A DNA stretch of 64,000 nucleotides from an uncultured Gaiellales bacterium (lineage in GTDB: Bacteria > Actinomycetota > Thermoleophilia > Gaiellales > Gaiellaceae): assembly GCA_964578545.1 (NCBI GenBank), contig CAZODN010000001.1, positions 8,139-72,138 of the forward strand, in the 5' to 3' direction. Made by a program: the position numbers and the translations under genes. Shown one piece after another: positions 57,108 through 60,755 of this stretch. The number at the start of each line of letters is the position of its first letter. Position 1 is the first letter of the stretch. The notes beneath the pieces are model-generated. The model saw nothing but the letters and a program-made list of their open reading frames with translations, was not told the DNA's origin and did no database searches.

Positions 57108-58028
57108 TCAGCCGGTGGCGAGCTTCTCCAGGACCGCGCCCTCGAGCTCCCTGACCGAGACCGCCCCCTCGAACCGCTCGACGATCCGGCCGTCGCGGTC
57201 GACGAGGAACGTCCACGGCTCCGTGTCGAGCTTCCACTCGCGCAGCCAGCGATTGAGGCCCTTCGTCGGGTCGTTGCCCTCGTAGACCTCGACGTGGATG
57301 AAGCGGACGCCGCTCCCGTCGAGCCGGCGCGCGACCTCCTCGACGACGTCCACGGTCGGCCCGCACGTCCTGCTCGTGCAGAACTTCGGAGTCGCGAAGG
57401 TGACGACGAAGGGGACGTGCGCGTCGAGCGACTCGGCGACGGAGTGCTCGAGCAAGGTCTCGTCCGGCGGCGTCCGGGTCGTCAGCTTCGCGAGATCGCC
57501 GCCCGTCGAGCGAATCGTGGGGGTCTCCGAGCGGGGAGCCGGATCGCCGACGTCGGGCTCCGGGTTCTCCGTCCGCACGACGACGTTCCCGAGCGCCTGC
57601 ACCTGCTCGCCGCCGCCTTCGGGCTCCGCGAGGAGCCAGTACGTGCCGGGGTTGGGCAGGCGCAACCGGGCGACGTAGATGTGGCTCGCGTCCGCCTCGG
57701 CGCCCCCGGGGACGCCGATCCGCTCGAGCTTCGCCTCGGTCTCGAGGAAGGGCACGGCATCGAGGGCGGTGGCGACCCAGACGCGGGCCGTCGGCAGCGT
57801 GACGGGACGGCCCTCGGCGTCCACGACGAGGAACGAGACGCGAACCTCGCCGGGCCCGTGACTCTGGGTCCCGGCGACGACGGCCACGTCGTCGCCGGGA
57901 GCCCGCCAGAGCTCTTCGAGCGTCTCGCCACCACCCGCTCCTCTCGCGGTCGCAGGCTCCTCGTCCGAGGCGCCGCAGCCGACGAGGAGCACGCACGACA
58001 GCGCGGTCACTGCCGCAGCGAGGCGCAT
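57108..58028 (-). CDS. Lipoprotein with a C-terminal thioredoxin-like (redoxin/TlpA-type) domain
   Basis: MRLAAAVTALSCVLLVGCGA carries a lipobox. The C-terminal part is VPFVVTFATPKFCTSRTCGPTVD...FIHVEVY. I do not recognise the N-terminal roughly 150 aa domain. Confidence 0.7.
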   Translation of the reverse strand: MRLAAAVTALSCVLLVGCGASDEEPATARGAGGGETLEELWRAPGDDVAVVAGTQSHGPGEVRVSFLVVDAEGRPVTLPTARVWVATALDAVPFLETEAKLERIGVPGGAEADASHIYVARLRLPNPGTYWLLAEPEGGGEQVQALGNVVVRTENPEPDVGDPAPRSETPTIRSTGGDLAKLTTRTPPDETLLEHSVAESLDAHVPFVVTFATPKFCTSRTCGPTVDVVEEVARRLDGSGVRFIHVEVYEGNDPTKGLNRWLREWKLDTEPWTFLVDRDGRIVERFEGAVSVRELEGAVLEKLATG

Positions 58029-58055
58029 ACGCGCCCGAGTGTAGCCGCGGTTCGG

Positions 58056-58151
58056 CTAGTTCCCGTCGGGCCAGGACGCCATCCCGAACTTGCCAAGCCA
58101 AGCGGCCAGCAAGGCCAGGTTGACGAGCAGCAGCAGCAGCCTCGGCTTCAT
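58056..58151 (-). CDS. Unannotated 31-codon ORF encoding a signal-peptide-like small peptide MKPRLLLLLVNLALLAAWLGKFGMASWPDGN
   Basis: The ORF is below the track size cut-off. ATG 58151..58149 is preceded by GAGAGGAGG with a 5-nt spacer, and starts 14 nt after the TAA of the XRE-TPR gene. 29 of 31 codons end in G/C, as in real genes here. The peptide has a basic N-terminus, a Leu-rich core and a polar C-terminal tail. Confidence 0.45.
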   Translation of the reverse strand: MKPRLLLLLVNLALLAAWLGKFGMASWPDGN

Positions 58152-58165
58152 GGCGACCTCCTCTC

Positions 58166-59539
58166 TTAGAAGCGGATTTCCTGAAGTGCCTCGGCGGCAC
58201 TCCGGTAGAGACGTGCGGCCCCGCGGTCGTCTCCTCGACGCGCCGCGAGATCACCCAGTGCGACCCACGCCTCCGCCCGGTGGCTGATCGACGCCATCTG
58301 CTCAGCAGCCGCGTCAGCCGCCCGGAAACACTCTTCCGCCTCGTCGAGCCGTCCCCGCTCCATCAACGCTCGCCCCAGAACGAGCTGCGAGGGACTGACT
58401 TCGTGGAGGTAGTCCACCCGGTCCCGCAGGAGCCCCAACGCCTGCCGGGCCAGGTCCTCCGCCTGGTCGTACTCGCCACGGTTCAGGTGAACCCTGGCTA
58501 TCCCCTCGAGCGCCTGAGCGGCGTCGGCAGGGGAATCCGAGTCCAGCGCCCGTGCATAGGACGCCTTCAAGTGCTCGACGGCGTTCTCCTCGTCACCCAG
58601 CATGAGCGTGAGGCCGCCGAGCATCAGCAGCAGCCGACCGACGTTGCGCTCGTCGTTCAGCTGCCCGTACAGCTCCTTCGCGCGCTGCGCGTAGCTGCGC
58701 GAGAGCACGTAGTGCCCCTGGCGCTGCGCGATGAGCGACGCCTGGAAGTACGCGTTCGCGATCGACGCTCGGTCGCCCACGTCCTGCGCGAGCTCGAGCG
58801 AGCGCTCGACGTCGTCGCGGGCGGCGACGTAGTCGCGCAGGCGGCGGTGGCACCGCGACCGCCACTGCAGCACGTCCGAGCGGAGCACGTCCGCCGGAAG
58901 GCCGCTGCGCTCGGCGAGCTCCAGCGCCTCGTCGAAGAGCGCGATCGCGCTCGAGATGCTCGAGAGCTTGTACCGGCACACGCCGAGCCGGAACAGGAGG
59001 TCCGCCCGGTCGAGGTCGGAGAACTCGGGCCGCTCGGCGAGGCCGCGCGCGCGCTGAAGGAGCTCGATCGCCTCCCGCTGAGCGCCGACCTCCTGGAGCG
59101 CCCACGCCTCGATCGCGAGCGACCGCACCTCGAGCGACGCGACCCCGGCCCGCTCGACGTTCGGCCGGATGCCCTCGACGACCTCGAGCGACTCCTCGTA
59201 GCGATGGGCCTCGAGCAGCGCCTCGGCGCGGGAGAGCTCCGCCTCCACCATCGTGCGCTCCTCGGTGGAGACACCCGACGCGAGGAAGGACGCGTCGACG
59301 CCGAGCTGCTCGGCGAGGATCGCGAGCGTCGCCTCCGTCGGGCGCGTCTTGCCGCGCTCGATCTGGCTGATGTACTCCTTCGAGAAGCGTCCGGCGGCGA
59401 GCTGGCTCTGGGTGAGGCCGGCCGCGACGCGGAGCTCCCGGACGCGCTCGCCGACCCGGGCTGCGCTCGTCCGGACGCCGGCAGGCGAAGCCGTGTCGGA
59501 GACCATCGTGGGCGTGCGCGGCTGCTCGGTCATTCCCAT
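58166..59539 (-). CDS. XRE-family HTH regulator fused to a roughly 9-repeat TPR domain (about 457 aa)
   Basis: The HTH is VGERVRELRVAAGLTQSQLAAGRFSKEYISQIERGKTRPTEATLAILAEQLGV. Repeated 34-aa TPR-like units follow to the C-terminus. Start at ATG 59539 or 59533. The upstream part of the track ORF is implausible. Confidence 0.85.
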   Translation of the reverse strand: MGMTEQPRTPTMVSDTASPAGVRTSAARVGERVRELRVAAGLTQSQLAAGRFSKEYISQIERGKTRPTEATLAILAEQLGVDASFLASGVSTEERTMVEAELSRAEALLEAHRYEESLEVVEGIRPNVERAGVASLEVRSLAIEAWALQEVGAQREAIELLQRARGLAERPEFSDLDRADLLFRLGVCRYKLSSISSAIALFDEALELAERSGLPADVLRSDVLQWRSRCHRRLRDYVAARDDVERSLELAQDVGDRASIANAYFQASLIAQRQGHYVLSRSYAQRAKELYGQLNDERNVGRLLLMLGGLTLMLGDEENAVEHLKASYARALDSDSPADAAQALEGIARVHLNRGEYDQAEDLARQALGLLRDRVDYLHEVSPSQLVLGRALMERGRLDEAEECFRAADAAAEQMASISHRAEAWVALGDLAARRGDDRGAARLYRSAAEALQEIRF

Positions 59540-59619
59540 CCCAGTCAACCCGAGGAAGACGCCGGACGCGCTCCCCCGGGAGGGGGATGTGGCCGGGTGC
59601 TCCTGGGTCAACCAAGCAT

Positions 59620-59649
59620 ACTTGAAATCACTTGACAGAGCTACTTGAC
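59620..59649. promoter_or_regulatory. Three direct repeats ACTTGA(A/C) (59620, 59630, 59643) in the AT-richest patch of the window (candidate regulator sites)
   Basis: The sequence is catACTTGAAatcACTTGACagagctACTTGACt. The third copy contains the -35 box of the orphan promoter. Confidence 0.3.
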
Positions 59650-59673
59650 TTTTTCGGACCTGGCCCCTATAGT
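59645..59673 (+). promoter_or_regulatory. Near-consensus sigma-70-type promoter TTGACT-17 nt-TATAGT with no protein gene downstream
   Basis: TTGACT lies at 59645..59650 and TATAGT at 59668..59673, with an exact 17-nt spacer. Such an element is very unlikely by chance in sequence this GC-rich. Confidence 0.55.
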
Positions 59674-59679
59674 CAGGCC

Positions 59680-59855
59680 CACACCGCACCGATCGGACGC
59701 CAGATCGGATGCGTGGCACCACCGCCGGAGCAGCCGGCGGGCGCAGGAAGAGCGTGGCTGGGCCGCAGAGCCACGACTCTCCGGCTCGCCGACCCGGGAA
59801 GGGGTCGCCTCGAACGGAAAACGCCCCCGGAGCCGCAGCCGGGGGCGTTTTCACA
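59680..59855 (+). ncRNA. Candidate roughly 175-nt structured small RNA (promoter to intrinsic terminator), class unknown
   Basis: Four internal hairpins have exact arms: CCGATC/GATCGG at 59689/59703, CCGCCGG/CCGGCGG at 59722/59734, CGTGGCT/AGCCACG at 59753/59769 and CGACCC/GGGTCG at 59790/59802. The terminator at 59817..59852 closes the unit. The only ORF (59709..59858) has no Shine-Dalgarno sequence and weak third-position GC bias. Confidence 0.4.
59817..59852. terminator. Bidirectional intrinsic terminator GAAAACGCCCCCGG-agccgcag-CCGGGGGCGTTTTC
   Basis: 14-bp perfect arms, flanked by an A-run and a T-run. Confidence 0.7.
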
Positions 59856-60218
59856 TGACGGGGGAACCCATGGTTCCCCCGTCAGCCCCCTCCTTCGCCG
59901 CCCGTCACGGCTCAGCCGCACTCAGCCTCCCGGGCACATGGAGTGCCCTCCGGCCTCGGCCCCTGCTCCATCGCTCAGCGCGAGCCCGAGAGCCAGCGGT
60001 GGCCCTGCTCGAGGAGCGCGGCGACGCGCTCAGCCCTGACGGGGGAACCCATGGTTCCCCCGTCAGCCCCCTCCTTCGCCGCCCGTCACGGCTCAGCCGC
60101 ACTCAGCCTCCCGGGCACATGGAGTGCCCTCCGGCCTCGGCCCCTACTCCACGGCTCAGTGCTCGCCGGCGAGCCAGCGGTGGCGTTGCTCGAGGATCGC
60201 GGCGAAGTCCTCGGCCGA
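59856..60218. repeat. Tandem direct repeat, 2 x 181 bp. The first 109 bp are identical and carry a 12-bp-arm hairpin; the remainder is diverged and corresponds to the 3' end of the TetR gene
   Basis: 59856..59964 equals 60037..60145 exactly. This stretch includes GACGGGGGAACC-cat-GGTTCCCCCGTC at 59857..59883 and 60038..60064, and GGGCAC-atgga-GTGCCC. The following roughly 70 bp differ at many positions. On the minus strand, copy 1 reads AERVAALLEQGHRWLSGSR* and the live TetR C-terminus reads AEDFAAILEQRHRWLAGEH*. Confidence 0.9.
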
Positions 60219-60755
60219 GAGGAGGCCTCCGAGCCGGTCCGCGACGGAGACGAGCATGATCGCACCGACGAAGATCCACGCCTCGGCGTCCGCGTCCCGG
60301 TCCCGGTGCACGACCCCCGCCTCCTGCATGCGCCGCACGAAGTCGGCGAAGAAGCCGTGCACCTCCCGCATGTGCCGGCGGACGTGCTTGCGGATCTCCG
60401 GGTCCTCCCCGGCCTCGGTGATCGCCTGGAGCCACAGGCTCGGGAGGAGGAACCGCGTCTCACGGAGCGCGGCCGGCGTGATCGAGCGCAGCCCCGCGAC
60501 GGGACCGAGCTCGTCGATCTGCGACTCGATGCGCACGCGGATCCGTCTCCACGCCTCGTCGAGGCACGCGAAGTAGAGGTCGCGCTTCGACGCGAAGTGC
60601 CGGTACAGGATCGGCTCCGAGATTCCCGCCGCACGCGCGATGTCGGCGGTCGTGGCCCCTGCGTAGCTCCCCTCCGAGAACACGCGCAGCGCAGCGTCGA
60701 CGATCGCCCTCCGCCTCTCGGCCGCAGGGAGCCGCGCCGCCGTTCCAGGCTTCAC
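60156..60755 (-). CDS. TetR/AcrR family transcriptional regulator
   Basis: RRAIVDAALRVFSEGSYAGATTADIARAAGISEPILYRHFASKRDLYFACL. It has a GTGA overlap with the upstream MFS stop. Confidence 0.88.
   Translation of the reverse strand: MKPGTAARLPAAERRRAIVDAALRVFSEGSYAGATTADIARAAGISEPILYRHFASKRDLYFACLDEAWRRIRVRIESQIDELGPVAGLRSITPAALRETRFLLPSLWLQAITEAGEDPEIRKHVRRHMREVHGFFADFVRRMQEAGVVHRDRDADAEAWIFVGAIMLVSVADRLGGLLSAEDFAAILEQRHRWLAGEH

Follow-up and report, generated by a model that had tools for sequence, protein, structure and literature searches.

A gene for a structured RNA in the family Gaiellaceae, divergent from a predicted peptide-sensing XRE-TPR regulator

In the enterobacterial pairs OxyR-OxyS, GcvA-GcvB, and SgrR-SgrS, a small RNA (sRNA) gene lies divergent from the gene of the factor that controls it. 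In the agr system of Staphylococcus aureus, a peptide-signalling operon (P2) and the structured effector RNA RNAIII (P3) have back-to-back promoters with shared regulator sites, and RNAIII, which is 514 nt long and encodes a peptide, has one short motif repeated in several of its hairpin loops, the terminator loop included. PrgX/prgQ of the Enterococcus plasmid pCF10 and PlcR-PapR and NprR-NprX of the Bacillus cereus group combine a receptor made of an XRE-type helix-turn-helix (HTH) and helical repeats with a cognate exported peptide. PrgX has two operator sites, one of them over the -35 hexamer of a strong promoter, and exerts peptide-controlled repression in a circuit that includes small RNAs. 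The subject of this report is a gene for a structured RNA in a 64,000-nt stretch of DNA from an uncultured Gaiellales bacterium (contig CAZODN010000001.1, positions 8,139 to 72,138; hereafter the window), which stands back-to-back with a gene for an HTH protein with tetratricopeptide repeats (TPR).

Peptide-sensing receptors of this general kind are also known from the arbitrium system AimR-AimP-aimX of SPbeta-group Bacillus phages, in which AimR, an HTH-TPR protein of the RRNPP family, recognizes two hexamers, set apart by a spacer, next to the one gene that it targets (PMC6458997). For phage phi3T, this target, aimX, is now described as the gene of a small protein (PMC10769878). According to a survey, RRNPP systems occur in Firmicutes and in mobile elements of that group, and the signals of Actinomycetota are small molecules (PMC10075063). 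The present locus lies outside that range, in Gaiellaceae, Thermoleophilia, Actinomycetota. A literature search found no paper on RRNPP systems of Actinomycetota that have an RNA as output and no publication on this RNA or on sRNAs of Gaiellales. Gaiellaceae are abundant, almost uncultured soil actinobacteria, from which, to our knowledge, no regulatory RNAs have been described.

As in arbitrium, an HTH-TPR protein of receptor type is encoded beside a small gene for a putative secreted propeptide, and spaced short repeats lie by one adjacent small target gene, the candidate operator here also being essentially single in the genome. Unlike arbitrium, the locus belongs to an actinobacterial chromosome, is inherited vertically, and has no phage context. 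Its target is divergent from the receptor gene, whereas the arbitrium target lies downstream of the peptide gene; its candidate operator consists of three half-sites, two of them direct, overlapping a strong -35; and sequence similarity to arbitrium is absent beyond the domain level. A preliminary description of the locus had invoked AimR by analogy. The analogy fits better than was then apparent because a conserved exported-peptide gene comes after the regulator, but it does not extend to the target, which here has no conserved open reading frame (ORF), whereas AimX is described as a small protein (PMC10769878).

The locus is like agr in its layout of back-to-back promoters and in a loop motif that is repeated up to the terminator loop. 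However, a cytoplasmic HTH-TPR protein would take the sensor role of the two-component AgrCA pair, and the RNA is about 175 nt long, specifies no peptide, and carries GCCGCAG rather than the anti-Shine-Dalgarno C-rich motif of RNAIII. A candidate site over the -35 of a strong promoter is shared with PrgX, but PrgX, PlcR, and NprR occur in Firmicutes or on plasmids and have protein-coding operons as targets, the PlcR operators are palindromic boxes, and the likeness is at the level of architecture only. The enterobacterial pairs likewise have a stand-alone sRNA divergent from the regulator gene, ending there in an intrinsic terminator and here in a candidate one. Their regulators are of the LysR type or SgrR, their sRNAs act through Hfq-dependent single-stranded seeds, and no peptide signal is involved, whereas the present RNA has repeated hairpin-loop motifs.

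The RNA gene and its distribution

The gene is defined by two features.
59645 to 59673, plus strand: sigma-70-type (housekeeping sigma) promoter, TTGACT-17-TATAGT, supported by promoter scans and conservation in the family
59681 to 59854, plus strand: predicted sRNA of about 174-175 nt, its start placed from the -10 hexamer and its end from the terminator

The preliminary description had regarded this promoter as the best of the window and had placed it inside the AT-richest patch, and both statements hold. In a scan of the whole window, TTGACT-17-TATAGT is the top site with a score of 10/12, and a single other site reaches 9/12; between 57000 and 62000, it is the sole match, where 0.1 is expected from shuffled sequences. 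The 60 nt starting at 59614 have the lowest G+C content in the window (43%, versus 71.9% window-wide). Among family sequences anchored on the promoter, the spacer is 17 nt long in 50 of 53 relatives, and the -10 hexamer is TATAGT, TAGAGT, or TACAGT (53/54 sequences). From the approximate start to the end of the gene, the plus strand folds with -99.2 kcal/mol (z = -4.9).

A BLAST search found one copy of the element in its own 2.66-Mb genome and homologs with 85 to 92% identity in 33 of 36 congeneric genomes; completeness is 52 to 85% in the three that lack it. Within the genus, conservation begins at the promoter block and ends right past the terminator. A covariance model built from 33 genus sequences (the genus model) matched 60 of 201 genomes of the order, all within one family. 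A second model, built from 51 family-wide sequences (the family-wide model), was searched against 301 genomes and matched 49 of 53 Gaiellaceae, always as a single copy, and 0 of 248 other Thermoleophilia. Matches of both models in the family cover the full model length. Four Gaiellaceae genomes have no match to the family-wide model: in one, the relevant contig ends a short way upstream of the regulator gene, two yield partial matches to the genus model when the speed filters are removed, and one lacks the regulator as well. The RNA is specific to the family Gaiellaceae. Conservation and covariation in related intergenic regions, which had been proposed as a check on the preliminary description, were both found by means of BLAST, the covariance models, and shuffle controls.

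No gathering-level match to Rfam 15 was found anywhere in the window. Even at E values up to 10, the segment from 59300 to 60300 gave only chance-level matches (≤18 bits) to microRNA and long noncoding RNA models, and a search for tRNA and tmRNA genes found none. No ORF on either strand is conserved among the homologs. ORFs vary from species to species, several homologs have no plus-strand ORF of at least 10 codons, and the distances between the two invariant GCCGCAG motifs are spread evenly over the three classes modulo 3 (15/17/20), which indicates that indels do not come in threes. A protein-coding reading of either strand was rejected on the basis of the missing conserved ORF and this even spacing. 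The element is a stand-alone gene for a structured non-coding RNA that belongs to no described RNA family. The preliminary description had made the same three points from the single sequence, namely, the lack of a credible ORF downstream of the promoter, the lack of fit to any known RNA class, and the stand-alone nature of the structured RNA, and they are now borne out by the empty Rfam search, the unconserved ORFs, family-wide conservation, single-copy occurrence, and strong covariation.

Two specific identities were tried and rejected. A 6S RNA was rejected because a separate near-threshold 6S candidate sits on another contig and because the fold differs: RF00013 has no match at the locus, and in the conserved fold, a hairpin at the 5' end is followed by an internal rod and then by a separate terminator hairpin, whereas a 6S RNA is a rod whose 5' and 3' ends pair with each other around a central bubble. 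The 6S candidate, on contig C2 (18720 to 18878), scores 45.5 bits against the Rfam cut-off of 46.4 (E = 6e-8) and is the sole 6S-like match of the genome. A Csr/Rsm-type sponge was also rejected, since the repeated loop motif is GCCGCAG (two to three copies) and not many GGA loops, and since no CsrB or Rsm match was found.

Conserved fold and invariant loops

The RNA folds into three domains.
59683 to 59715, plus strand: SL1, with outer stem 59683-59688/59710-59715, inner stem 59690-59694/59704-59708, and loop GGACGCCAG at 59695-59703
59715 to 59809, plus strand: SL2, a long irregular rod, with apical stem 59753-59759/59769-59775 and loop GGGCCGCAG at 59760-59768, in which GCCGCAG occupies 59762-59768
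59817 to 59852, plus strand: SL3, the candidate intrinsic terminator, with a 14-bp stem and loop AGCCGCAG at 59831-59838, in which GCCGCAG occupies 59832-59838

RNAalifold analysis of the genus alignment yielded the 5' hairpin, the long irregular rod, and the terminator. Since a plain MAFFT alignment of all genera was too noisy for RNAalifold, being usable only for the tip of SL2 and the terminator, model-guided and sub-region alignments were used for the wider comparison. In the model-guided alignment of 51 sequences, 90.2% of the cells are paired (72.0% in shuffles), and 41 of 46 pairs have changed on both sides. The covariation score is 0.451, compared with 0.163 in shuffles, none of which reached it (0/500), and 0.04 to 0.08 for slid partners. 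Because this alignment had been fitted to the model, the key tests were redone on structure-free alignments. In alignment A8, the stems of SL1 are 86.5% paired (79.5% in shuffles), with 7 of 9 pairs compensatory, and in the MAFFT alignment A2, pairing in the rod reaches 97.2%, and 6 of its pairs are compensatory. The outer stem of SL1 alternates among CCGCA/UGCGG, UUGCA/UGCAA, CCGA/UCGG, and CUCCG/CGGAG. The 14-bp stem of SL3 (arms 59817-59830 and 59839-59852; U run 59848-59851) is perfect and covaries around a loop that is kept (CGCCCCC/GGGGGCG, CGUCCCC/GGGGACG, and AGGCCCC/GGGGCCU), and the terminator tails of family relatives are U-rich. All three structural domains are supported by covariation.

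These results bear on the hairpins proposed from the single sequence in the preliminary description. The 14-bp stem of the putative terminator is borne out: it is perfect, it covaries, and the tails of its relatives are U-rich. The four exact-arm hairpins upstream of it are all present in this sequence, and two of them, at 59690-59708 and 59753-59775, have been kept in evolution. The other two, at 59722-59740 (CCGCCGG/CCGGCGG) and 59791-59806 (GACCC/GGGTC), were rejected because they are 78% paired, no better than shuffles, and the long-range pairing of the rod takes their place. A helix noticed by eye, GGAAGAG/CUCUCC, was rejected as unsupported in the alignment test.

Three loops stay invariant while the stems around them vary, namely, GGACGCCAG in SL1, GGGCCGCAG at the tip of the rod, and AGCCGCAG in the terminator. 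The motif GCCGCAG is invariant across 55 family sequences, and ACGCCAG in SL1 is nearly so. The terminator loop is both conserved and repeated on another hairpin, and this points to the loops being a recognition element rather than plain structure. In the genomes at loci L154 and L168, an extra hairpin with the loop GUGCCGCAG, followed by a U run, lies in tandem directly past the usual GCCGCAG hairpin, and the RNAs of these two genomes thus hold three GCCGCAG loops each.

Regulator linkage, candidate operator, and proposed mechanism

Upstream of the RNA gene, the following features were identified.
58166 to 59539, minus strand: XRE-HTH/TPR regulator gene, start at 59539 or 59533, with Pfam domains HTH_3 and TPR_12/TPR_MalT
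58056 to 58151, minus strand: exported-peptide-like ORF of 31 codons, MKPRLLLLLVNLALLAAWLGKFGMASWPDGN, 14 nt past the stop codon of the regulator gene
59607 to 59613, no strand assigned: inverted half-site R1, degenerate here (GTCAACC); its consensus GT(C/G)AAGT is the reverse complement of ACTTGAC
59620 to 59626, plus strand: ACTTGAA, the first repeat of the preliminary description, unconserved (AGCCGAA or similar in relatives)
59630 to 59636, plus strand: half-site R2, ACTTGAC, centred at about -48 from the predicted start
59643 to 59649, plus strand: half-site R3, ACTTGAC, overlapping the -35 hexamer

The divergent arrangement of the RNA and the XRE-TPR gene, already noted in the window, recurs throughout the family. 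An ortholog of the regulator adjoins the RNA divergently at 29 of 30 loci in at least 14 genera, the exception being a contig end, and in 10 further genomes, separate genome-wide searches for the RNA and for the protein converge side by side. Sixteen family genomes had no match to the genus model under strict speed filters; 14 of them carry the regulator (52 to 59% identity), and 2 do not. With an unfiltered search beside those regulators, or with the family-wide model applied genome-wide, the RNA adjoins the regulator in nearly all, and the two genomes without the regulator lack the RNA too.

The regulator has an HTH_3 domain at residues 31 to 83 and TPR_12/TPR_MalT matches across residues 177 to 453, and its AlphaFold model (mean predicted local distance difference test score of 88) is all-helical, with the HTH followed by about nine helix pairs. 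At the level of domains and model, it thus has the architecture of an RRNPP receptor, an N-terminal HTH and a C-terminal TPR-like domain. The adjacent ORF has a hydrophobic N terminus and, in most of 80 genus loci, the C-terminal sequence SW(P/S)DG(N/H); the hydrophobic N terminus recurs elsewhere, in further genera and in a second family (f5), where the related tails are FFDGH, HFDGH, WDGP, and FHEW. A small ORF next to the receptor gene with a conserved end is what is expected of an RRNPP propeptide, and its export is predicted.

The candidate operator is conserved together with the promoter. R1, which sits about 16 nt upstream of R2, reads GTCAAGT, GTGAAGT, or GTGAAC in most family members. 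R2 and R3 are each at least 95% conserved (53/54 family sequences anchored on the promoter), with the consensus AAATC-ACTTGAC-CGAGCT-ACTTGAC. R2 has no promoter role yet is conserved like R3, even where the identity of the neighbouring protein drops to 54 to 55%. The tandem R2-N6-R3 occurs once in the 2.66-Mb genome with up to two mismatches allowed. The preliminary description had listed three ACTTGA(A/C) direct repeats as putative binding sites of the adjacent regulator. Two of them, R2 and R3, stand, and ACTTGAA at 59620 proved peculiar to this genome. The idea that the repeats are regulator sites is strengthened, because the tandem is near-invariant, genome-unique, and recurs beside an ortholog of the regulator in family f5 and a paralog in genus g23.

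In family f5 (L196-L198; genomes G044, G040, and G048), the regulator ortholog is 42% identical, can be aligned without gaps, and has a similar HTH recognition region. The promoter at its locus is of the form TTGAC-17-TAnnnT and is accompanied by ACTTGA(C/T) repeats, the propeptide ends in GFHEW, and the same divergent position is taken by a structured RNA of about 190 nt (z = -3.8) that contains GCCGGUGGGCCGCCGGC. Neither covariance model gave a significant match to this RNA at the expected place, and its homology is therefore unproven; position, promoter, and operator nonetheless agree. In genus g23 (L203-L206; genomes G099, G155, G203, and G176), a paralogous XRE-TPR gene with 52 to 53% identity has its own divergent promoter, CACTTGAC-AATCCC-CCTTGACT-17-TATAGT, with a repeat pair that is similar but less exact. 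The paralog RNA is about 115 nt long, has a terminal rod with the GCCGCAG-type loop UUGGGCCGCAGAA, and gives a weak match to the family-wide model (19 to 23 bits). A Fe/Mn superoxide dismutase gene lies about 90 nt downstream of it on the same strand, which hints that the partner and physiology of the RNA may concern oxidative stress.

The reading preferred here, to which we give a probability of about 0.6, is that a structured sRNA is run by the housekeeping-sigma promoter, is set by a peptide-sensing XRE-TPR cassette, and acts in trans via its loops. The near-consensus promoter would transcribe the RNA, and its own hairpin terminator would end the transcript. The XRE-HTH/TPR protein would bind the three-site candidate operator, that is, the inverted copy and ACTTGAC-N6-ACTTGAC, the last copy lying over the -35. 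The regulator and the exported-peptide gene would form an RRNPP-like peptide-sensing cassette, in which the peptide signal would act on the regulator and the regulator on the level of RNA transcription, the RNA being the direct and perhaps only transcriptional output. That the RNA is the output of the cassette is probable because it stands back-to-back with a regulator of the peptide-sensor type. Repression, either relieved or imposed by the peptide, would be somewhat likelier than activation, because the promoter is near consensus and one site lies over its -35, an arrangement comparable to PrgX at the prgQ promoter. The RNA would then act in trans through its exposed loops, GCCGCAG twice (three times in some genomes) and ACGCCAG, which may either pair with CUGCGGC-type sites in target RNAs or bind a protein. 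It is tentatively suggested, at somewhat short of even odds, that the RNA is the dedicated effector arm of RRNPP-like cell-cell signalling in Actinomycetota, with the GCCGCAG loops docking onto a partner. If this wiring is true, the locus would represent a compact signalling circuit with an RNA output, made up of one operator, one promoter, and one RNA, in a phylum where none has been described. The invariant repeated loop motif provides a handle for finding the partner of the RNA, and the covariance model can be used for annotating the RNA in metagenomes.

Several observations weigh against this reading. A near-consensus promoter requires no activator, which leaves room for constitutive expression of the RNA, and the ACTTGAC repeats could be read by sigma itself or by some other factor instead of the regulator. 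In fold comparisons of the regulator, generic TPR proteins rank first, with PlcR-PapR-DNA (3u3w) at rank 37 and RapJ at rank 48. Because generic TPR proteins dominate, the sequence and fold searches of the PDB do not discriminate, so that the resemblance to RRNPP receptors is one of architecture and gene order and not of close similarity. Just 4 U follow the G+C core of the terminator in this genome, and for this reason, a consensus terminator scan, which requires at least 5 T in 8, made no call at SL3. Searches for targets were also unrewarding: duplex energies of the three loop regions at -45 to +25 of crude gene starts equal those of intragenic windows (first percentile, -30.9 kcal/mol around starts and -31.6 kcal/mol inside genes in this 72% G+C genome), and GCCGCAG is not enriched in hairpin loops genome-wide (7.4%, rank 79 of 140 7-mers of the same composition). 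CUGCGGC sites adjacent to the cassette are conserved only in the genus and one neighbouring genus and are kept only as a lead.

These sites form the basis of a narrower proposal, in which the GCCGCAG loops would pair with CUGCGGC in the 3' untranslated region (UTR) of the regulator-peptide transcript and at the 5' end of a leaderless lipoprotein mRNA. This would amount to feedback within the cassette, a special case of the preferred explanation rather than an alternative to it, and is considered rather improbable. CUGCGGC lies within 45 nt past the stop codon of the peptide gene at 40 of 70 genus loci, whereas its frequency in the genome predicts about 1% per locus. In the window, it occupies 58012 to 58018 on the minus strand, where, in the lipoprotein gene, it reaches from the codon 3/4 boundary through codon 6 and is read via the rare Ala codons GCT and GCA (3.5% and 4.3% of the Ala codons of the genome). 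However, the site is not retained in most other genera, and the corresponding Ala codons in genus g15 spell GCCGCAG instead; shared ancestry in the genus inflates the count, and codons ending in A or T are common near starts for unrelated reasons. A constitutive housekeeping RNA, 6S-like or another abundant stable RNA, with the ACTTGAC repeats serving the promoter or autoregulation of the regulator gene itself, would account for the activator-independent promoter, the single copy per genome, the length of about 175 nt, and an rrn-type second terminator hairpin past the gene like that found after 5S rRNA. This explanation is unlikely, as R3 lies on the -35 of the RNA itself, R2 is equally conserved without a promoter role, and linkage to the regulator is strict across genera and extends to family f5 and the paralog. 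The confinement to one family, a fold that is not the 6S rod closed by both ends, and the separate 6S candidate on another contig (45.5 bits against 46.4) also argue against it.

As a cis-acting leader or riboswitch-like attenuator, the RNA would control a downstream gene, and indeed a co-directional transporter-like gene lies past the terminator in genus g15, as the superoxide dismutase gene does past the g23 paralog RNA. For the RNA described here, this is very unlikely: the next gene is convergent in the window (TetR) and convergent or variable in most genera (TetR, major facilitator superfamily [MFS], and others), a conserved hairpin, predicted to be a strong terminator, ends the RNA, no alternative anti-terminator pairing was seen in it, and no riboswitch model of Rfam matched. 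The leader reading stays open for the g23 paralog only. Lastly, the transcript might encode a small protein or peptide, its structure being secondary, as with aimX of some arbitrium phages, which was first considered an RNA and is now taken to encode a small protein in two reports (PMC10769878; bioRxiv 10.1101/2025.11.23.689978). A 49-codon ATG ORF at 59709-59858 in this genome would suit such a role. This explanation is extremely improbable given the lack of a conserved ORF on both strands and of any plus-strand ORF of at least 10 codons in several homologs, the indels that are not multiples of three, the compensatory substitutions in the stems, and the absence of a Shine-Dalgarno sequence.

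Neighbouring features

Two further features lie downstream of the RNA gene.
59856 to 59897, plus strand: second hairpin, GACGGGGGAACC-CAT-GGTTCCCCCGTC followed by CCCCCUCCUUC, outside the conserved RNA core
60156 to 60755, minus strand: TetR gene, followed by an MFS gene, both convergent with the RNA

The TetR/MFS pair is often swapped for other genes across genera. On the other side of the RNA gene, the presumed 5' UTR of the regulator gene contains a conserved hairpin with a variable loop at 59566-59590 (in the minus-strand reading, GCTCCCCC-N4-GGGGGATGTG), which most of the genus shares and which takes the form CCCC(C)-AAAA-GGGG in other genera. The lipoprotein gene (57108-58028, minus strand) encodes 306 amino acids without a Pfam match and is apparently leaderless, with a -10 sequence TACACT at 58038-58043 that ends 9 nt before the ATG. 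In many genera of Gaiellaceae, this gene comes after the peptide gene, and it may be part of the cassette.

The second hairpin past the sRNA is present in most of the genus but in few other genera and is read as a back-up terminator or processing element for the sRNA. It belongs to a module, GGGGGAAMC-nnn-GKTTCCCCC plus CCCCCUCCUUC, which has four copies in the genome in constant orientation relative to transcription, at 59856-59897, at 60037-60078, on contig C38 at about 19180 (L201), and on contig C93 at about 7573 (L200). Of the two copies outside the window, one lies directly past the 5S rRNA gene and the other separates two co-directional genes of the glutamate-synthase-like kind. The module, whose tail is similar to the anti-Shine-Dalgarno sequence, has the look of a terminator or processing signal of the rrn type. 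The two copies in the window are part of a 181-nt tandem duplication (59856-60036 and 60037-60217; 91% identical), which repeats the hairpin-plus-CCCCCUCCUUC module along with a diverged remnant of the TetR gene's 3' end.

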